Shown: positions 39,371 through 50,867, counted from the stretch's first letter. The stretch: 64,000 nucleotides of DNA from Chloroflexota bacterium (GCA_963663275.1 OY760183.1:480001-544000), one strand, 5' to 3'. Notes: generated from the letters alone by a model not told the origin. Translations and numbers: made by a program.

Positions 39371-39563
39371 GAGACCTTGCATCACCCCTTCCCCATCGAG
39401 GGCTGACAGGGGTATGTATTCTATAATCGACTTCACGTGTCATTCCGAACGGAGCGCAGCGGAGAGAGGAATCTAAGGCGCTGCATTGCAATATCATCTC
39501 TTCTAGATTCCGCGAACCCTGTTCGACGCTCCGCTCGGAATGACGGAGTTACGCAAAGGTTTC
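39371..39563. mobile_element. Chimeric MITE A/B copy
   Basis: GAGACCTTGC... directly followed by a GGGCTGACAGGGGTA end; closes with GTTACGCAAAGGTTTC. Confidence 0.7.
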
Positions 39564-39646
39564 CAATAGAGAGAGGGCGGGTCGTCTGGCGACCCGCCCT
39601 CTCTTCGATTTCACGGCTAGTCCGCCCGTTCGGCGGGCATTGCGCC

Positions 39647-40444
39647 TTACTCGATGGCAAACGTCACGCGCACGTGCGCGGTCACGCCGACCGTGCCGCC
39701 CTGCACCGGCGGGGCGTAGCCGCCGCCGTCGAAGGCCGCTTCCGCTCTGGCCGCGAACGCCCGCGCCTGCGGCCGCTCGATGTACTCCTCATTCACCATC
39801 AGGGCGTCGCCCAGCGTGACGCCCAGCGTATCGGCGATGGTCTGGGCTTTCGCCTGGGCGTCCAGCACGGCGGCGATGAGCGCGTCGGTTACGATCGCCT
39901 CCGTGTCGCTAAGGCCGAACTGGATGCCGCTCACCGTGTTCGCGCCGGCCGACACCGCCGCGTCCAGCACCTCTCCCGCCATTTCGATTTCGTGCACGGT
40001 AACGGAAACCGTGTTCTGCGCCCGGTAGCCGATGACTTCCCGCGGCCCCTCGGCAAACCGGTCCTGGTCGTCATAGACGGGATAGAGGTTGATGCCGGCA
40101 GTCTGAATGTCCTCATCTTCGATGCCGAGGTGCTGCAGTTCGTGGATGACCTCGGCCATCTGCTCGCTGTTCAGCGACAGAGCCTCCATCGCGGTATCGC
40201 CCGTGGCTTGCACCCCCAGCGAGAGGATGACCAGGTCGGGCTTGGCGCTCGCCGTGCCCTGTCCCGAAACGCTAATGCTGCGCTCGCTCGCCTCCCCATG
40301 GCCTTCGTCGACCACGGCCGCGGCCGGCGCCTCCGCTTCCGCCGCGCTGGACGCGGCCTGCACCGCCGCGGCCCCGCACGCCGGCAAGAGCAGCACGCTC
40401 GCTATAATTGCCAGCAATCCGATGAACTTCCTGGTGATACCCAC
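39647..40444 (-). CDS. SIMPL (DUF541) domain lipoprotein
   Basis: ISVSGQG...KPD...LGV, IQT..INLYPVY, A.AKA..IA..LG. Confidence 0.9.
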   Translation of the reverse strand: MGITRKFIGLLAIIASVLLLPACGAAAVQAASSAAEAEAPAAAVVDEGHGEASERSISVSGQGTASAKPDLVILSLGVQATGDTAMEALSLNSEQMAEVIHELQHLGIEDEDIQTAGINLYPVYDDQDRFAEGPREVIGYRAQNTVSVTVHEIEMAGEVLDAAVSAGANTVSGIQFGLSDTEAIVTDALIAAVLDAQAKAQTIADTLGVTLGDALMVNEEYIERPQARAFAARAEAAFDGGGYAPPVQGGTVGVTAHVRVTFAIE

Positions 40445-40615
40445 GACGGCCCTCCTTTTGAAAAACGATGCTTCACTACAGTGAATGGTACTCAGTTGCG
40501 GCGTAGAACGACCTTGCTACGGCTCTTACGTGAGGGCGAAGAAGCACTCTATGCCTATGCTACCATACGAAGTTGTAGGGTTGCTGATGCGAACGTCTAC
40601 CTTGGGAGAATCCCC

Positions 40616-42502
40616 GTGTCGATTCCGGTGGAAGCCGCCCGCGAGCGCATGTCCGGCGTCCCCTTGCTGCCCGGGTGCTACCTCTTTCGCGATCGCAAGG
40701 GCGCGGTGCTCTACGTGGGCAAAGCCAAGCTGCTGCGCAATCGCGTGCGGTCGTACTTCGGCCGCCAGGACCGCATGCCCTGGAAGACCCGCAGCATGGT
40801 GGAAAACGCCGCCACGCTGGAGTACATCATCACCGACACGGAGATCGAGGCGCTGGTGCTGGAGAGCAATCTCATCAAGCACCACCGCCCGCGCTACAAC
40901 GTCGTCTTGCGCGACGACAAGTCGTTTCTCTACCTCAAAGTCACCCTGAACGAACGCTACCCCCGCGTGTTGACAACCCGCCGCATCCTGGACGACGGCG
41001 CGCAATACTATGGTCCCTACACCAGCGCCTACAGCCTGCGCGACACCCTGAACCTGCTCAACCGGCTCTTTCCCTACCGGTCGTGCGCCTTGGACATGGA
41101 GAAGGAGTACGAACGCCCCTGCTTGGACTACCACATCAACCGCTGCGCCGGACCGTGCGTCGGCGCGGTGACCCAGGAGGGCTACGGCGGCATCATCGAG
41201 CAGGTCACGCGCTTCTTGGAGGGCCGGCCGGGCGACGTAATCCAGAATCTCCGCGCCGACATGCGGGAAGCGTCGGACGCGCTGGAGTTCGAACGCGCGG
41301 CGGCAATGCGCGACCGCATCCGGGCGGTTGAGCGCGTCCTGGAACGCCAAAAAATCACAAACATTAGGCAAGGGGACATCGACGTCATCGGCTTCGCCCG
41401 CGAGCACGACGAGGCCTGCGTGCAGGTCTTCAGCATTCGCGGCGGCCACCTGCTGGGACGCGAAAACTTCATCCTGGAGCACGTGTCCGACGAGGAAGAC
41501 CGGGACGTGATCCGGGACTTCCTGCAGCAGTTCTATGGCCGCAGCATGCAGATTCCCCAGGCGCTCTTCCTGCCGGTAGGCATTCGCGGCGCGGAGTTGC
41601 TGCGCGCGTGGCTGCGGGAGCGGCGCGGCGGCAGCGTGACGCTGAGTGTGCCCAAGATCGGCGAGAAGCGCCGGCTGGTGGAGTTGGCGGGAAACAACGC
41701 CCGCCAGGGCCTGCAGGACCACCGCCTGCGGCACCTGGACAGCCAGCAGCGGGCGCAGGTGGCGCTGACCGAACTGGCCGACACGCTGGATCTGGACGCG
41801 CCGCCGGTGCGCATCGAGTGCTACGACATTTCGAACATACAAGGCGCGTACACGGTGGGCGCGATGGCGGTGTTCGTTGCCGGTCTGCCGAGCACCGGCG
41901 ACTACCGCCGCTTCCGCATCAACTCCGTAGACGGCCCCAACGACTACGCCAGCTTGCAGGAGATGCTGACCCGGCGGCTGAAACGCCTCAGCGAGCAGCG
42001 CGCGGAGGAGGAGACGGGAAAAGAAGAGAAGGCTGCGGACGGGCAGGTGGATGCGGACGCCCTGGACTCATGGGGCATGAAGCCCGATTTGCTCGTGATC
42101 GACGGCGGCAAGGGGCAACTCAACGCGGTGCTGGAGGTGCTGGCGAACCTGGCCCTGCACGATATTCCGGCTCTGGGTCTGGCCAAGCAGCGCGAGGAGA
42201 TTTTTCTCCCCGGCGCGCCCCGGCCGATTACCCTGGAGGAACGGTCCGAGGCGCGCAAACTGCTGCAACGCATCCGCGACGAGGCCCACCGCTTCGCGAT
42301 TACCTACCACCGCACGGTGCGCACCAAGCACACCCTCGGTTCCCTGCTCGATAAAGTGCCCGGCATTGGCGTCAAGCGGAAAGTGGCGCTGCTGCAGCAC
42401 TTTGGCAGCGTGGACGCGATCCGGGAGGCGTCGGTCGAGGTCCTGGCCGGCGCGCCCAAGATGAACCGCTCCGTGGCGGAGAAGGTGAAGGAACACCTGT
42501 AA
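40616..42502 (+). CDS. uvrC: Excinuclease ABC subunit C
   Basis: YVGKAK.LRNRV.SY (GIY-YIG), ECYDISN, IDGGKGQL, RDEAHRFA, HhH. Confidence 0.97.
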   Translation: MSIPVEAARERMSGVPLLPGCYLFRDRKGAVLYVGKAKLLRNRVRSYFGRQDRMPWKTRSMVENAATLEYIITDTEIEALVLESNLIKHHRPRYNVVLRDDKSFLYLKVTLNERYPRVLTTRRILDDGAQYYGPYTSAYSLRDTLNLLNRLFPYRSCALDMEKEYERPCLDYHINRCAGPCVGAVTQEGYGGIIEQVTRFLEGRPGDVIQNLRADMREASDALEFERAAAMRDRIRAVERVLERQKITNIRQGDIDVIGFAREHDEACVQVFSIRGGHLLGRENFILEHVSDEEDRDVIRDFLQQFYGRSMQIPQALFLPVGIRGAELLRAWLRERRGGSVTLSVPKIGEKRRLVELAGNNARQGLQDHRLRHLDSQQRAQVALTELADTLDLDAPPVRIECYDISNIQGAYTVGAMAVFVAGLPSTGDYRRFRINSVDGPNDYASLQEMLTRRLKRLSEQRAEEETGKEEKAADGQVDADALDSWGMKPDLLVIDGGKGQLNAVLEVLANLALHDIPALGLAKQREEIFLPGAPRPITLEERSEARKLLQRIRDEAHRFAITYHRTVRTKHTLGSLLDKVPGIGVKRKVALLQHFGSVDAIREASVEVLAGAPKMNRSVAEKVKEHL

Positions 42503-44677: not shown

Positions 44678-46177
44678 TCACTCCGCCGCGAAGTCGCGCC
44701 GGACGCGCTCCCCAAAGTCGTGCGCTTCCTCAGTGTACGTGGCGAAAGGATCCGGCATCTCCAGCACCCGGCCGCGCGCGGCGATCGCCTTCCAATCCAG
44801 CACGTAGGGAATCACGTCCCAGCTATCGTTGGCGGCCACGTCCTGCCAATCGTCCACGTAGTCGTAGGCCAGGAAGAAGTAGCGGCGGTCCCACATCAGG
44901 TTTTCCAGGTTCGTGCGCAGGTCCTGCCAGGGGATGGCCGTATCCACGCCGGCCGCGGCCAGGGCCCTTAGCGCCGCGCCGCGGCCGTGGGCGCGGGTAT
45001 CGGCAGGCGGGCGGGTTTCCGCCGCGTAGACGGCCTCATCCTCCGCCCAGTAGAGGTTGCGCTGCCGCTTTGCCAGCACGTCGAAGAGGCTGATCGACGG
45101 GTCGATCTGGTGATAGGAGAGATCCAGCTTAATCAGGTCCGGGTCGGTCCAGGCCGTGCCGGCGCCGGCAAAGCGCTTGAGTTGCTCGTGCTTGGTCACC
45201 CAATCCAGGTAGCCGTCCAGCCGCGCCGGATCGCGCTCCAGTTCGTCCAACACCCAGGCCCAGTTCTCCAGCGTCCACACCGTATCCGCGTCGCGCCCGC
45301 CAAAGCGGCGTTCGGCTTCGCGCAGGTAGCGGCGCTGCACCTCGGTGGCGGGTATGTATTCGTCCGTTTCCGTGCCCACGGTCCACTTGCCGCCGGTGGT
45401 GCCGGCAATGCGGCGCAAGTCGCGCACCGGATCGGCCAGCGCGAGTTGGGGGCTCCAGCCTTGCTCCAGCAGTTGGGCGGCCAGCGCGGTGGCGCCGATC
45501 TTCAACGCGGTGGTGAACTCGGAACGATTCACGTCGCCCACGATCACGTGCAGGCGCCGGTACTCCCGTCCCGCCAGCGGCTCGTCGCGCAGATTGATGA
45601 TCGGCCGGCCGCCAAACCGCACCCGGTGGCTCACGTCCAGCGTGACGAACTGCGCCCGCTGCGAGAGCGCGAACGCGGCCGGCGTGTCCTTGCCGCGCGG
45701 CAACAGGCAGCCGGCCCCGGCGTAGATCTGGCGGGTGACGAGAAACGGCAACATGCCGTCCACCAGTTCGCGGTCGTACGGGCTCTGGCGGATGCAGTAG
45801 TTCTCGTGGTAGCCGAACGTATGGCCGAAGTAGTCGGTGTTGTTCTTGACGAAGAAGGCCTGGGACTCAAGCTCGGCGGCGCGCACGGCCTCGTTGATGA
45901 TGTGCTCGCCGGCGCGTTCGTGGGCCACCACGTCGGTCAGGGTGCGGCACTCGGCGGTGGCGTGCTCCAGGTGGCCGAGGTCGAGATACATGCGCCCGCC
46001 GTTGAAGAGAAAGCCGCCGTTCCCCGGCGCTTCCCCCCATTCCCGGGGCGGCGGGTCGATCAGGCCGTGGCGGCACCCGCGAAAGATGGCGTCCTTGACC
46101 AATACCGCCGCCCGCACGGGCTGCACGCTGCCCACGCAGCCATACTCGATCTCTGTGCCGAACAGTGCGTCATCCAT
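44678..46177 (-). CDS. pafA: Pup/UBact--protein ligase (PafA family)
   Basis: GTEIEYG, GNGGFLFNGGRMYLD.GHLE, KNNTD..GYHENY, RDEP, RRLHVIVGD, DLSYH, TRA, DW; no Dop loop. Confidence 0.9.
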   Translation of the reverse strand: MDDALFGTEIEYGCVGSVQPVRAAVLVKDAIFRGCRHGLIDPPPREWGEAPGNGGFLFNGGRMYLDLGHLEHATAECRTLTDVVAHERAGEHIINEAVRAAELESQAFFVKNNTDYFGHTFGYHENYCIRQSPYDRELVDGMLPFLVTRQIYAGAGCLLPRGKDTPAAFALSQRAQFVTLDVSHRVRFGGRPIINLRDEPLAGREYRRLHVIVGDVNRSEFTTALKIGATALAAQLLEQGWSPQLALADPVRDLRRIAGTTGGKWTVGTETDEYIPATEVQRRYLREAERRFGGRDADTVWTLENWAWVLDELERDPARLDGYLDWVTKHEQLKRFAGAGTAWTDPDLIKLDLSYHQIDPSISLFDVLAKRQRNLYWAEDEAVYAAETRPPADTRAHGRGAALRALAAAGVDTAIPWQDLRTNLENLMWDRRYFFLAYDYVDDWQDVAANDSWDVIPYVLDWKAIAARGRVLEMPDPFATYTEEAHDFGERVRRDFAAE

Positions 46178-46204
46178 GCCTGCTCTACCCAAAGAAGCGC
46201 GCGG

Positions 46205-46441
46205 CTACTCGCCGCCGGGCTGCGGCGTGGGATCGGGCACTTCCCGAATGATGCGCCGGATTTCCTCGTCCAGATCGTCGGTTTCGGTCTTTTCCGGCGC
46301 TTCCGTAGGCGATTTCGTCGGCGTTTCCGTCGGCGCTTCGGTGCCCGCCCGCGCCGGACGGAACCCGCGTTCCGCCGCGGCCTCACGCGCCGCGCCGGCA
46401 GCGAATCCTCGCCACGGTCCGTTTTCAGCATACCACGTCAC
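46205..46441 (-). CDS. pup: Pup-like ubiquitin-analogue modifier, 78 aa, C-terminal GGE
   Basis: GTG start overlapping the dop stop (GTGA) after AAGGAGG; EKTETDDLDEEI core resembles Pup; ends QPGGE; lies between dop and pafA. Confidence 0.82.
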   Translation of the reverse strand: MTWYAENGPWRGFAAGAAREAAAERGFRPARAGTEAPTETPTKSPTEAPEKTETDDLDEEIRRIIREVPDPTPQPGGE

Positions 46442-48051
46442 GTGCCGCCTCCTTGTTGTATTGCGTGGTGGAGTTCCTCGATAGTCTGGCACGCATCCAC
46501 CAACGCTTGTTGTCGAGCCACCGTCTCGCCCCAGAGTTCGGGCAGGGCCAGGGTGAAGGGCGTGCCGTTGTGTTGAAACGTGATCGAGCCCCACTCCATG
46601 GCGCTGACGTGGGGCGCGAATTTGGCCAGGCAGGCCGCCCGGACGCCGGCGCGGGTGCCCGCGGGCGCGGCGGTTTCCGCGTGCGCGATGTCCGCGTCGC
46701 TCACGATGCGCCGCATCCGGCCGGCGCGAACGAGCATGTGGTAGAGGCTCACCGCCGGATCAACCAGGTGGTAGGCCAGATCGAGCCGCAGCGCCGTCGG
46801 GTCTTCCCAATCGACGCGCGCGCCGCCGCCTTCGTCGGAGACGCCGCCTTCGTCGGAGACGCCGCCTTCGTCGGAGACGCCCATCTGGGCGAAGAGCGCC
46901 AGTTTGGCCGCCCAGTCCGCGCGGTCGCGCAGGCGCGCCGGGTTCGAGTCCAGCAGGTCGAGAACCGCGCCCCACTCGTCCAGCACCCAATCGGTTTCGG
47001 CGTCGCGGCCCCGGAAGCGCAGCACCGCCTCCCAATAGCGGCGCTGCACGTCCACCGCGCGGATGGTCGTGCCGTCGTCCAGCGCCAGCGGCCGCTTGAA
47101 CTCCAGATCGCGTGAGACTGTTTGCAGCGCCTGCACCGGGCGCCGCAGCCGCAGTCGCGGCGCCGCGCCTTGCTCTACCAGGTCGAGCATCAGGGCCGTG
47201 GCCCCCACGCGCAGGGCCGTGGCGAACTCGCTGCAATTGGCGTCGCCGATGATCACGTGCAGGCGGCGGTATTTCTCCGCGTTGGCGTGGGGCTCGTCGC
47301 GGGTATTGAATATGGGGCGCTGGGTGGTGGTATTAATGCCCACCTCGGTCTCGAAGAAGTCCGCCCGTTGGCTGAGCTGGAAACCGCCGCTGCGCCCGCC
47401 TGCCGAATCGCGCGTCTCGTACGAACGTGGCCGTTCGTGCGAACCCGGCGCTTCGTGCGCCGCCTTGCCCGCTCCCGCGTAGATCTGGCGGGTAACGAAG
47501 AAGGGAATGCACGCGCCGATCAGGTCGTGCAGCGGCACGGCGCGGCTCACCAGGTAGTTCTCGTGGCAGCCGTAACTGCGCCCGTGGTAGTCGGTGTTGT
47601 TCTTGACCAGGCGCACCCGGTCCGCTTGGCCGCCGGCGGCGTTGCGCGCCTGCTGCGCCCGCCAGGCCACGCGCTCGCCGGCCTTGTCCTGGGCAACCAG
47701 GTCGTGCAGGGAGAGACAGGCGTCCGTGCAGTATTCCGGGTGATTGTGATCATTGTAGAAGCGCGCGCCGTTGGGCAGCACGGTGTCGGCCAGGAGTTCC
47801 TGCCGGCTGAGCCGCTTGCTCTTGGCATTGTTGCCGCGCAGGTCGTGAGGATCGTGGTCCAGGCGCGCGACCCGCGTGCCGCGCAGGTCTACCCGCGGAT
47901 CCTCGGCGGTGTAGTCCCAGCCGCGAAAGACCGCGCCCGCCAGCGGCGCGCCGCGCACGAGCATGGCGGCCTCGTAGGCAAAGTCCACCGCCTGCGCGCC
48001 ATTAGCGCATATCATGCCGTACTCGGTTTCGATCCCCACGGGTCGATTCAT
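46438..48051 (-). CDS. dop: Depupylase/deamidase (Dop family)
   Basis: GIETEYG, Dop-loop WDYTAEDP..DLRG, NGARFYNDHNHPEY, SYGCHENY, RDEPHA, RRLHVIIGDAN. Confidence 0.9.
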   Translation of the reverse strand: MNRPVGIETEYGMICANGAQAVDFAYEAAMLVRGAPLAGAVFRGWDYTAEDPRVDLRGTRVARLDHDPHDLRGNNAKSKRLSRQELLADTVLPNGARFYNDHNHPEYCTDACLSLHDLVAQDKAGERVAWRAQQARNAAGGQADRVRLVKNNTDYHGRSYGCHENYLVSRAVPLHDLIGACIPFFVTRQIYAGAGKAAHEAPGSHERPRSYETRDSAGGRSGGFQLSQRADFFETEVGINTTTQRPIFNTRDEPHANAEKYRRLHVIIGDANCSEFATALRVGATALMLDLVEQGAAPRLRLRRPVQALQTVSRDLEFKRPLALDDGTTIRAVDVQRRYWEAVLRFRGRDAETDWVLDEWGAVLDLLDSNPARLRDRADWAAKLALFAQMGVSDEGGVSDEGGVSDEGGGARVDWEDPTALRLDLAYHLVDPAVSLYHMLVRAGRMRRIVSDADIAHAETAAPAGTRAGVRAACLAKFAPHVSAMEWGSITFQHNGTPFTLALPELWGETVARQQALVDACQTIEELHHAIQQGGGT

Positions 48052-48136
48052 CGTTACCCTTCGGTACCGCGTTACCCTTCGGTACCGTGCTGCCTCTCGG
48101 TACCGTGCTGCCTCTCGGTACCGTGCTGCCTCTCGG
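48052..48136. repeat. 18-bp tandem repeat x~5 abutting the dop start
   Basis: CGTTACCCTTCGGTACCG x2, then TGCTGCCTCTCGGTACCG x~3. Confidence 0.88.
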
Positions 48137-48389: not shown

Positions 48390-48505
48390 CCAAGCGCCCA
48401 AATAGGGGAGGCCAGCACCCAAAGAGGATAGGCAAGCGCCCCAAGAGGACAGGCAAGCGCCCCAAGAAGGCAGGCAAGCGCCCAAAGTTCGGGACAAGCG
48501 CCCAG
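48390..48505. repeat. ~21-bp degenerate tandem repeat x~6 in the divergent intergenic region
   Basis: CAAGCGCCC[C/A]AAG..G..AGG units. Confidence 0.8.
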
Positions 48506-48624: not shown

Positions 48625-49596
48625 ATGACCCTGCGAGAACTCTACGACACCGCCATCGAAATCGGCCGCGAGGTCGACCCGCGCGGGCGCGAGGCGCTGG
48701 ACCGCCAGCTTGAGGAGCGGCGGCAAGAGTACGCCGCGCTGCCGGAATGGCGCAAACCCTACTACGACCGGGAGCGGTTCAACAATCCCTACGGCGACGT
48801 GCGCATCGTCAACGGTCCCGAGGACACCGAACTCGATACGATTTTGTTAGGCATCAACATCTGGACGCAGGAACTGCTGCTGGCCGACCACCTGCGCAGC
48901 GGCGGCGCGCGGGTGGACGCGGTGATTTCCCACCACACCAACAGCATCGGCGTGCCGGCGGACACCCTGATCTATGACTCCGTGCCGTATCTGGTAGACC
49001 TGCTGGCAAGCGCCGGGGTGGCCCGCGCGGACGCCAAGCCGCACGTCGAGGCCATGATGAACGAGCGTTGGCTCGCCGCCGAAGACTTCAACCGCATCGG
49101 CAGGGACACGGCGGAGTTGCTCGGTTTTCCGTTGGCCTGCATCCATACCCCGGCGGACTTTCACCACGGCATCGGCGTGCGCGGCGCGATCGAGGCCGCG
49201 CGGGCCGCAACGGTAGGCGACGTGGTGGAGGCGCTGCTGGCCCTGCCGGAGTTCCAGGGCGCGGCCCGCATCGGGGCCATTCCGCGCATCCTGGCCGGCG
49301 ACGCCGCGCAACCCGCGGGCCGCATCTTCCACCAGGACGGCGGCGGCTGGCTCTTTCCGGCGGACGTGATTCCCCTGCTCAAGGAGGCCGGCGTCGGCAC
49401 GTTCGTCACCATCGGCTGTTCGCCCGCCCACCAGCGGCAAGCCCGGGAACTCGGCATGAACTGGGTGCGCATGCCCCACGGCGCGTGCGACAACGTGGGC
49501 CTCAACCTCCTGCTCGACAAAGTGGAGCAACGCCTCGGCCCGCTGAACGTGATACCGTGCAACTACTTCGAACGGATCAAGCGCAACGGCAACTAA
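48625..49596 (+). CDS. NIF3 (NGG1p-interacting factor 3)-like protein, copy 1
   Basis: DPRG, FNNPYGD.RI, SHH, CIHTPAD, H...DN.GLNLLLD. Confidence 0.75.
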   Translation: MTLRELYDTAIEIGREVDPRGREALDRQLEERRQEYAALPEWRKPYYDRERFNNPYGDVRIVNGPEDTELDTILLGINIWTQELLLADHLRSGGARVDAVISHHTNSIGVPADTLIYDSVPYLVDLLASAGVARADAKPHVEAMMNERWLAAEDFNRIGRDTAELLGFPLACIHTPADFHHGIGVRGAIEAARAATVGDVVEALLALPEFQGAARIGAIPRILAGDAAQPAGRIFHQDGGGWLFPADVIPLLKEAGVGTFVTIGCSPAHQRQARELGMNWVRMPHGACDNVGLNLLLDKVEQRLGPLNVIPCNYFERIKRNGN

Positions 49597-49847
49597 TTCC
49601 AACCTGGCGCGGGGGCTTGTATCTGACGTTGCCCCATTGGGGCCTGCCCCCGACGTTGCCGCATCACCGTAGCGCGGGGGCTCGTCCCCCGCACATGGAT
49701 ATACTCGACGCCACGTAGCGCGGGGGCTTGTCCCCCGCTCTTCGTAAGAGCAAACTTCCGTCTCCGTTGGCGGACGAACCAAACCGGGTTTGCCCTCGCC
49801 CCGGCCCTCACCCGGGCGGGCAACAGGGGCAGATCGGAAAGCGTGAC

Positions 49848-50867
49848 ATGGCAACCTTACGCGCTCTCTATGACACCTCCATCGCGATCGGCCGAGAGCT
49901 TGACCCCAGAGGCCAGGCGGCCATCCAGCGCCAGTTGCGGCAGCGCCGCGACGAGTACGCCGCGCTGCCCGCCTGGCAGCAGGCGTTCTACGACCGGGAG
50001 CGCTTTCGCAATCCCTATGGCGACGTGCGCATCGTCCACGGCCCGGACGACACGCCCATTCACACCGCGTTGGTGGGCATCAACCTGCACGTGCCGGAGA
50101 TGCTGCTGGGGGAGGCGCTTGCGTCCAGAGGCGTCAAAATCGACGCTTTCCTGTCCCACCATACGAACAGCGTCGGCATTTCCGCCTCGCTGGTGGCCGA
50201 CTTCATGGAGATCAACGCCGACTACCTCATCTGGGAAGGCGTGCCGCCGGACGCGGCGCGGGCGTGCATCGCCGGCTACATGGCGGAACGCCTGCAAGCG
50301 CACGAAGACGTGCACCGCATCGGACCCGACACGGCCGCGCTGCTGGGCTATCCGCTCGCCTGCATCCACACGCCGGTCGACCTGGCGCACCGCCAGTACA
50401 TCAACGCGCTCTTTGCGCGGGAGAAGCCGCCGACCGTCGGCGCAATCGTCGAACTCATGCTGACGCTGCCGGAGATGCAAGAAGCCGCGCACATCGGCGC
50501 CATGCCCCGCATCATGGTTGGCGAGCCGGCGCAGCCCGCCGGACGCATCCACGCCAAGTTCGCCGGCGGCTACGCCTATCCGCCCGGCGCTTTTCCGCTG
50601 CTGGCGCGGGCCGGCGTGAACACCGTGGTGCAGGTTTCGGCGCAAGCGGCCACCGTTGACGCCTGCCGCGCGCACGGCATCGCCCTGGTGCGCCTGCCCC
50701 ACTACGCCACGGACAACATCGGCCAGAACCTGCTGCTGGACGAACTCATGCGCCGCCTGGAGCCGTTCGACGTGATTCCCTGCAACTACTTTGGCCGGGT
50801 AGACCGCGCGGGAGACCTGGCGGCGTTGCTGGCTGCGGGCCCTATCATCAGAACCCTGGGGGGCTGA
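49848..50867 (+). CDS. NIF3-like protein, copy 2
   Basis: Same motifs as copy 1 (DPRG, NPYGD, SHH, CIHTP.D, H..DN.G.NLLLD). Confidence 0.75.
   Translation: MATLRALYDTSIAIGRELDPRGQAAIQRQLRQRRDEYAALPAWQQAFYDRERFRNPYGDVRIVHGPDDTPIHTALVGINLHVPEMLLGEALASRGVKIDAFLSHHTNSVGISASLVADFMEINADYLIWEGVPPDAARACIAGYMAERLQAHEDVHRIGPDTAALLGYPLACIHTPVDLAHRQYINALFAREKPPTVGAIVELMLTLPEMQEAAHIGAMPRIMVGEPAQPAGRIHAKFAGGYAYPPGAFPLLARAGVNTVVQVSAQAATVDACRAHGIALVRLPHYATDNIGQNLLLDELMRRLEPFDVIPCNYFGRVDRAGDLAALLAAGPIIRTLGG

Follow-up and report, generated by a model that had tools for sequence, protein, structure and literature searches.

An uncultured Chloroflexota bacterium carries, on the minus strand of a 64,000-nucleotide stretch of its genome (GCA_963663275.1 OY760183.1:480001-544000; hereafter the window, with positions counted from its first letter), three co-directional genes that encode a Dop-like enzyme, a small protein ending in Gly-Gly-Glu and a PafA-like enzyme. 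Our analysis indicates that these genes probably constitute a working, self-contained Pup-type protein-tagging module made up of a writer, an eraser and a tag. The cassette joins a Dop/PafA-type pair to a tag family of its own, lacks both ATPase and proteasome and is fixed in one Chloroflexota class. The reading builds on what was observed of gene anatomy, conservation, enzyme family membership and the absence of Mpa/ARC and of the 20S proteasome, and it concerns the following elements.

46438-48051, minus strand: putative Dop-like depupylase/deamidase gene (dop), 537 amino acids, assigned from PF03136, alignment to Dop structures and position in the Dop clade
About 47878-47919, minus strand: Dop-loop motif of the Dop-like gene, W45 to G58, GWDYTAEDPRVDLRG
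About 47746-47751, minus strand: catalytic Asp101-His102 of the Dop-like gene, in YNDHNHPEY
46205-46441, minus strand: small tag gene, 78 codons, with a GTG start that overlaps the dop stop
46448-46454, minus strand: Shine-Dalgarno sequence AAGGAGG within the 3' end of dop, 6 nt ahead of the tag GTG, read directly
44678-46192, minus strand: PafA-like putative tag ligase gene, 504 amino acids from TTG, assigned from PF03136 and motifs
About 45980-45982, minus strand: catalytic Asp of the PafA-like gene, in MYLDLGH
48055-48136, strand not assigned: 18-nt tandem repeat, 4.6 copies, immediately upstream of the dop start

A first-pass annotation, made from the sequence alone, had described three tightly coupled genes here, and the open reading frames (ORFs) were found at the positions it had given. 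The tag start codon (46441) shares two bases with the dop TGA and reads GTGA, and together with the Shine-Dalgarno sequence this overlap appears to represent translational coupling. The same pattern, an (A/G)TGA overlap with GGAGG at the same place, was kept in 22 of the 25 related loci that were parsed (one more locus, L046, was parsed wrongly by the script), which bears out the overlap and strong ribosome-binding site noted earlier; the small ORF is more than chance. For the PafA-like gene an ATG at 46177, giving 499 amino acids, is the likelier start than the TTG, judging from relatives that align from residue 6.

The Dop-like protein matched the Pfam Pup_ligase family (PF03136) with 484.7 bits (cut-off 25) and scored higher against the Dop model TIGR03688 (413.5 bits) than against the PafA model (328.9 bits). 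Residues 1 to ~533 align end to end with the Acidothermus Dop structures 5lrt and 4b0r (~325 bits), and the alignment takes in the Dop-specific loop (GWDYTAEDPRVDLRG against RWDFEEENPLRDARG in Acidothermus), the catalytic Asp-His and the HENY and RRLH motifs, in keeping with the earlier description of a Dop homologue bearing a Dop loop. At the nine alpha-loop positions that discriminate Dop from PafA in Table 1 of Hecht et al. (PMC7947786), the segment FFETEVGINTTTQ is identical to Dop at four and conservatively substituted at one, and none is of the PafA type. The protein has each of the features by which a functional Dop is recognised (the Dop loop, a His after the catalytic Asp, the alpha-loop type and a place in the Dop clade), and it is a true member of that clade, sister to the Dops of UBact-type systems.

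Within dop, positions 46824-46881 form a perfect in-frame 18-nt tandem repeat (3.2 copies) that encodes GVSDEG three times. Because the repeat falls in an alignment gap relative to Acidothermus Dop, and because most Dops of the same genus have 504 amino acids against 537 here, it looks like a recent strain-specific expansion.

The PafA-like protein matched PF03136 with 361.2 bits (cut-off 25); like the Dop-like protein it gave one continuous Pup_ligase match with no inserted domain detected. All of the motifs that had been attributed to this PafA homologue were read in it: FGTEIEYG (GxExE), MYLDLGH (catalytic Asp), YHENY and YRRLHV. Across 74 aligned relatives, E9, E11, D66, H124, E125, Y127, R208 and H210 are invariant or nearly so. 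The protein has no Dop loop and carries Leu-Asp-x-Gly-His in place of the Asp-His of Dop, with PafA-type residues around and after the Asp (Phe F61, Leu L70 and Ala-Thr-Ala A78-T79-A80); Ser50/Ser51 and Ser67 are without equivalents. Its segment VSHRVRF resembles VSPRVRF in the PafA encoded at the UBact-type locus of one class member, genome G017. An AlphaFold2 model of the protein was confident, with a predicted local distance difference test score (pLDDT) of 92.4.

The tag comprises a variable N-terminal region, a Pro/Thr/Glu-rich repeat of the APTETPT type, an acidic helix (DDLDEEIRRIIRE) and a tail, so placed that its 78 residues end in VPDPTPQPGGE. Among 13 aligned relatives the N-terminal part differs in sequence and length, and two elements are conserved. 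The first is the Pro/Thr/Glu-rich motif (APTETPT or APVKPVETPT), in which, written as APxKPxExPT, P41, P45 and T46 are invariant and P49 nearly so. The second runs from the helix to the C-terminus as (D/E)LDE(E/Q)(I/V)(K/R)RI(I/V)RE(V/I)PDPTPQPGG(E/Q). Over the last 26 codons of 26 sequences we counted 87 distinct codons against 44 amino-acid states, and the final ten codons vary almost only synonymously, a pattern which points to strong purifying selection on the tag C-terminus. At the DNA level the Pro/Thr/Glu-rich stretch (46295-46339) is a 12-nt imperfect tandem repeat of 3.8 copies encoding xPTE-type tetrapeptides, where relatives have APxKPxExPT.

A profile search of 5.8 billion proteins returned 157 clusters of tag homologues at E <= 0.01; the tags are 44-95 amino acids long. 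In the best 120 of these 157 clusters, 92 end in GGE and 28 in GGQ. Every cluster bearing a name is called 'hypothetical protein', and the only Pfam domain occurs in P0365, a called ORF of 146 amino acids that includes the end of dop. Run against the complete genome, the Pup model PF05639 matched nothing at E <= 10, and it matched none of the 13 tags at E <= 1. At the latter threshold none of the 13 matched the UBact model NF033388 (the positive control, the tag of G017, scored 77.2 bits) or any other tag family in Pfam or NCBIfam, and in NCBIfam there was no match to a family of any other kind. As a small protein that ends in GG[E/Q] and is encoded beside Dop or PafA, the tag is what the working definition of Pup describes; by family membership it is neither Pup nor UBact, and it defines an unannotated family. 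The original description of UBact reportedly gave its C-terminus as R-[T/S]-G-[E/Q]. Tag sequences are short and biased, and this could hide a real common origin with Pup or UBact below detection.

The earlier note had found no ATPase and no prcA or prcB gene in the window, and for Mpa/ARC and the 20S proteasome that absence extends to the whole genome, a single contig of 3,531,182 bases (3.53 Mb) estimated to be 99.57% complete. No Mpa/ARC was found in it: the model TIGR03689, whose cut-off is 504.75 bits, detected AAA modules only, in ClpX, in an FtsH-like protein and, as the best match, in FtsH (147.5 bits, covering positions 175-391 of the 512 in the model), while the model of the Mpa OB domain, PF16450, gave nothing below E 0.08 anywhere in the genome. 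No prcA or prcB was found either, PF00227 matching only one atypical protein of 265 amino acids. Judged by the Mpa/ARC and 20S models, the genome lacks the Pup-proteasome system as a whole; Bpa/PafE and a PAC2-type chaperone were not searched for.

The atypical protein (C1:901263-901739, locus L003) has the proteasome fold (PF00227, 48 bits) and the N-terminus MILVTLIVG. Its start overlaps the end of a 144-amino-acid ORF, and no alpha/beta subunit pair lies alongside. The 144-amino-acid ORF matches the candidate-defence model PDC-M19A of PADLOC and, more weakly, DarG. Among 17 genomes of the genus three have a PF00227 match, and only that of G005 resembles the protein at L003. Possibly the two genes form a toxin-antitoxin system or a defence pair with a proteasome-like protease as its core.

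The suspicion that the host was not an actinobacterium proved correct, because the nearest public loci, whose PafA-like proteins are 85-91% identical, belong to Chloroflexota. Of 27 related loci, 26 are assigned to Chloroflexota/Chloroflexi and one lies on a partial Poribacteria contig. We then took the host genome with 40 relatives as a sample of its class (41 genomes). Pup_ligase genes occur in 40 of the 41, and in 39 the pair lies 0.4-2 kb apart; in those same 39 the tag profile matches exactly once, between the pair. All three ORFs are intact in these 39 genomes, which span six family-level groups. The two exceptions are G017 and G031, a 92% complete genome with no Pup_ligase at all. The Mpa cut-off was reached by none of the 41 genomes, only G017 having a near-full-length match (453 bits, positions 24-509) and the others 159 bits at most, and any PF00227 match was restricted to five. 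Neither Mpa/ARC nor the 20S proteasome is present in the host genome, and the same holds for 39 of the 40 relatives sampled. Across the phylum, 401 Chloroflexota genomes were sampled evenly. Pup_ligase scored above the cut-off in 44 of these, every one of them among the 47 genomes that represent the class of the window (families f1, f2, f4 and f6); in the other 354 there was no match above the cut-off and one sub-threshold match of 17.5 bits. Since 39 of 41 class genomes carry the cassette and none of the 354 genomes outside the class does, it is a class-wide trait that is confined to one Chloroflexota class. The genes flanking it vary between loci.

The exceptional genome G017 has at locus L056 the complete order Mpa-Dop-UBact-PrcB-PrcA-PafA, and its tag is a bona fide UBact that ends in RYRQRSGE. 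Three further PafA-like paralogues (L057, L058 and L059) lie elsewhere in G017 and cluster in the tree with its own locus-encoded PafA, and at L060 there is a gene pair that by eye resembles HslV-HslU.

For the phylogeny of the enzymes, 150 representatives at 50% identity were collected (own cluster 592 bits, next match 340 bits), with the canonical locus of Nonomuraea gerenzanensis (NZ_LT559118.1) as reference, whose Dop and PafA pass the equivalog cut-offs (786 and 761 bits). A tree of 81 rows was built with IQ-TREE under LG+C20 with posterior mean site frequencies (PMSF) and a short search; a 186-row FastTree tree agrees with it. The Dop clade (Shimodaira-Hasegawa-like approximate likelihood ratio test, SH-aLRT, 99) consists of an actinobacterial part with Nonomuraea and a second part (99) that holds the Chloroflexota cassette Dops (100) together with the UBact-type Dops, including that of G017. 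The cassette PafA-like proteins (96) group with eight unnamed representatives (99), one of them labelled as a Chloroflexi metagenome-assembled genome; this group adjoins the UBact-type PafA, and a branch supported at 99 separates it from Dop and from actinobacterial PafA. Both enzymes lie outside the actinobacterial clades, and the enzymes of G017 are not nested within the cassette clades. The PafA-like enzyme forms a deep clade of its own, in a tree whose deep backbone is weak. The proposal of a distinct lineage of Pup-type tagging holds, because the enzymes fall outside the actinobacterial clades and the tag matches neither Pup nor UBact.

We also considered whether the PafA-like gene arose by recent copying of the local Dop; this topology was rejected by the approximately unbiased (AU) test (log-likelihood difference 92.5, p 0.0096), with the group tested having been picked after the tree was seen.

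A complex of the PafA-like protein (74-row alignment) with tag residues 36-78 (13 rows) was predicted alongside three controls. The interface score ipSAE was 0.74, 0.78 and 0.74 in three runs, against 0.01 for the best of the controls; the mark used is reached by 58 of 80 solved complexes and by 2 of 110 mismatched pairs, counts which hold only roughly here because our own alignments were used. The runs share at least 91% of contacts, and the pLDDT of the partner is at least 64. In the model, the tag helix (residues 53-65) is predicted to lie against ligase residues 332-371, while tag residues 67-78 would reach ligase residues 11, 13-17, 66-69 and 115-122 (numbered from the ATG), in the GxExE and catalytic-Asp regions. 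Contacts with an expected error below 8 A are limited to tag residues 53-78, and a residue not named among them is uncertain rather than thereby free. The model places the tail of the tag in the predicted active site of the ligase; what it shows is a similar mode of binding, and not that the two proteins bind.

We infer how catalysis would proceed, and what would become of tagged proteins, as follows. By homology with PafA and Dop, the PafA-like enzyme would bind the short helix of the tag in a groove and draw the PDPTPQPGGE tail into an active site of the carboxylate-amine-ligase type. There it would use ATP to activate the terminal Glu at its side-chain carboxylate and would then join the tag to lysine side chains of target proteins, from which the Dop-like enzyme could take it off again. 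Tags that end in GGQ, as at loci L029 and L051 and in about one quarter of the relatives, would first have to be deamidated by Dop from Gln to Glu. It is difficult to account for the mixture of GGE and GGQ endings without a Dop-type deamidase, or for a Dop without a ligase. On a modified protein, trypsin should leave the 12-residue tag remnant EVPDPTPQPGGE on lysine.

Almost the whole class lacks the canonical reader and protease, and on that ground we lean towards the tag being a reversible regulatory or remodelling mark that does not lead to proteasomal degradation, with delivery to ClpXP or FtsH as the main alternative; the loss of the ATPase on that scale argues for a proteasome-independent role. 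A more far-reaching proposal, on which we are nearly evenly divided and incline slightly to doubt, is that bacteria have, in addition to Pup and UBact, a third family of glutamate-linked protein tags, which the cassette represents, with its own ligase lineage, serving as a class-wide reversible modification without proteasome or Mpa; the tag would here be either a purely signalling or remodelling mark or a degron whose reader recognises the Pro/Thr-rich motif.

The same chemistry might instead be degradative, the tag delivering its targets to an unlinked non-Mpa unfoldase-protease (ClpX with ClpP, FtsH or Lon), perhaps through an adaptor that reads the APxKPxExPT motif or the helix. The genome does encode ClpX and two FtsH-type proteins, and ahead of its ligase-binding part the tag contains a further conserved motif that the complex model does not place on the ligase and that such an adaptor could use. 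Set against this, no adaptor or reader gene is linked to the cassette, the flanks beyond the three genes are not conserved between families, and the genome holds no known Pup-binding coiled-coil or OB module. We regard degradation by this route as possible and on balance unlikely.

Several results weigh against a PafA-type ligase acting on a Pup-like tag. Both enzymes score under the NCBIfam equivalog cut-offs: the Dop-like protein stays below the 492.3 bits of TIGR03688 (as does the Dop of G017 at 481 bits; Nonomuraea Dop is above), and the PafA-like protein reaches 288.5 bits against TIGR03686, whose cut-off is 551.3 (Nonomuraea PafA, 760.6; G017 PafA, 321). Compared with solved structures, the PafA-like protein is about equally far from PafA (216.7 bits) and Dop (205.6 bits), and a fold search of its model does not discriminate between them, because the two tie at template modelling (TM) scores of 0.78-0.79. 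Only one of the nine PafA-specific residues of Hecht et al. is kept in its alpha-loop/helix region. Joining the PafA-like clade and its sister to the Dop clade, a grouping likewise picked once the tree had been seen, was not rejected by the AU test (log-likelihood difference 7.6, p 0.387). For the tag, hhalign found no significant profile similarity to Nonomuraea Pup (probability 2%) or to the UBact of G017 (0.3%). Finally, the strong score of the complex model may partly be model memory, because PafA-Pup and Dop-Pup complexes have been solved (4bjr, 7oxy).

Taken at their strongest, these points would suggest that the PafA-like protein acts as a second hydrolase or as a regulator, or is a pseudo-enzyme, and that the tag is never conjugated: the protein is roughly equidistant from Dop and PafA in sequence and fold, it retains a single PafA alpha-loop residue, and the AU test leaves open a position next to Dop. 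We nevertheless consider this improbable. The protein has neither the Dop loop nor the Dop-type His after the Asp, and it has kept the PafA-type Leu and the Ala-Thr-Ala; its nucleotide and catalytic motifs show little or no variation among the 74 aligned relatives, and the AU test rejects recent duplication from the local Dop (p-AU 0.0096). Moreover, Dop and a tag without a ligase would leave nothing to remove.

Still less probable is that the enzymes join the C-terminal Glu of the tag to a small-molecule amine, for example in a peptide-scaffold natural product or a cofactor, rather than to protein lysines. Members of the wider superfamily (glutamine synthetase, gamma-glutamylcysteine ligase and YbdK), which are the next fold matches after Dop and PafA, do couple small amines to carboxylates, and no known tag family includes this tag. 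However, no tailoring, export or biosynthetic genes are linked to the cassette and its flanks vary, the pairing of Dop with PafA and the GGE/GGQ endings match protein pupylation exactly, and the cassette is kept class-wide in the manner of a housekeeping trait. That the genes are a decaying, functionless remnant of a UBact- or Pup-proteasome locus left after loss of the ATPase and proteasome can scarcely be credited: G017 does show that a class member may still have a complete Mpa-Dop-UBact-PrcB-PrcA-PafA locus, but its enzymes are not nested within the cassette clades, and 39 of 41 genomes, drawn from six family-level groups, have all three ORFs intact, with catalytic residues invariant or nearly so, almost wholly synonymous variation in the tag tail and conserved coupling signals.

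The self-contained tagging module that we favour shares several features with the Pup-proteasome systems of actinobacteria such as Mycobacterium (Mpa/ARC, Dop, Pup, PrcB, PrcA and PafA). In both, a Dop and a PafA-type enzyme flank a small disordered GG[E/Q] tag, dop precedes the tag gene, the same superfamily motifs are present and the tag family includes E and Q endings; a review of pupylation gives the same two endings, GGE and GGQ, for Pup (PMC3511204). In contrast to the actinobacterial systems, the cassette genome has neither Mpa/ARC nor 20S, its enzymes score 413 and 288 bits where those of Nonomuraea score 786 and 761, and its tag lies outside the Pup model and has only one helix before a short Pro-rich tail. 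Closer in one respect are Corynebacterium and similar actinobacteria, which according to that review have pupylation genes without a 20S proteasome and pup directly before pafA (PMC3511204). There, proteasome-less actinobacteria are described as still keeping the ATPase (PMC3511204), whereas the cassette lacks that as well, in the host genome and in 39 of 40 sampled relatives.

With UBact systems (Mpa-Dop-UBact-PrcB-PrcA-PafA, as at L056 of G017) the cassette shares the sisterhood of the Dops (SH-aLRT 99), adjoining PafA clades and the VSxRVRF segment. It differs in that the G017 tag ends in RSGE and matches NF033388, as cassette tags do not, and in having no ATPase or proteasome. Lack of a proteasome is by itself not without precedent, because in Plesiocystis and Rhodopirellula Pup and its ligase were already described as unlinked to proteasome genes (Iyer, Burroughs and Aravind 2008, PMC2588565). 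The ligases of those two organisms are reported to have an insertion of four transmembrane segments and to be linked to a membrane-protein gene (PMC2588565), and for Planctomycetes a single homologue is reported (PMC7947786). The cassette, unlike these, encodes two proteins in which no inserted domain was detected and of which one is clearly a Dop, and its tag is different. One published list of Dop/PafA names Actinobacteria, Nitrospirae, NC10, Armatimonadetes, Verrucomicrobia, Nitrospinae, Firmicutes, Proteobacteria and Planctomycetes (PMC7947786), and another places Pup in nitrospirae, deltaproteobacteria, planctomycetes and verrucomicrobia (PMC2588565). Chloroflexota are not named in those lists, and the supplementary alignments and trees of these papers might include Chloroflexota sequences (PMC7947786, PMC2588565). 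Among the titles and abstracts listed by our literature searches, none concerned a Dop/PafA system from Chloroflexota. The cassette extends the known range of Dop/PafA pairs to this phylum.

The functional core of the tag is short, about 40 residues in some relatives, its decapeptide tail is almost invariant, and no curated family covers it. Work on pupylation has dealt almost exclusively with delivery to the proteasome, and its proteasome-independent roles are debated. Such roles are hard to separate in actinobacteria, where the ATPase is always kept. Because writer, eraser and tag are kept across six family-level groups without ATPase or proteasome, the lineage offers a ready-made system for asking what Pup-type tagging does alone. 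An unstudied ligase lineage could also add a distinct ligase-tag pair to proximity-tagging tools based on PafA and Pup.

Two tandem-repeat arrays lie in the ~570-nt gap 5' of dop. The first (48055-48136) stops a few bases short of the dop start codon, and the second (48391-48487) consists of 4.6 copies of 21 nt; they may be operator-like or regulatory sites, or simply repeat-prone DNA. A promoter scan of the region returned no promoter-like site, and the six terminator-like sites in the region, against 3.7 expected from shuffles, are uninformative. Right at the tag stop codon, a 5-bp GC hairpin is followed by a T-rich run (46201-46215, minus strand). It is a weak signal, which might reduce read-through into the ligase gene and thereby leave the tag in excess.

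The flanks of the cassette in the window hold ordinary housekeeping genes, encoding a ModA-like binding protein, PyrF, UvrC and an SSF transporter. Across nine compared loci, no flanking ORF matched those of the window beyond the three genes, except in the closest locus, L042; ORF pruning for this comparison was crude, and some true genes were displaced by antisense ORFs. PADLOC defence models gave no match for the Dop-like, tag or PafA-like protein. Upstream of dop, on the plus strand, two adjacent paralogous ORFs of 323 and 379 amino acids (48625-49596 and 49728-50867) both start with ...L(Y)DT.I.IGRE.DPRG...; neither matches Pfam, and the 323-amino-acid ORF, the only one of the two scanned there, has no NCBIfam match. 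A copy that is 50% identical lies near the cassette in L042. On the other side, the UvrC ORF (39437-42502, plus strand) is listed as 1021 amino acids and its GIY-YIG domain begins only at residue 413, so that either its start was called too early or the protein has an N-terminal extension of ~400 amino acids.

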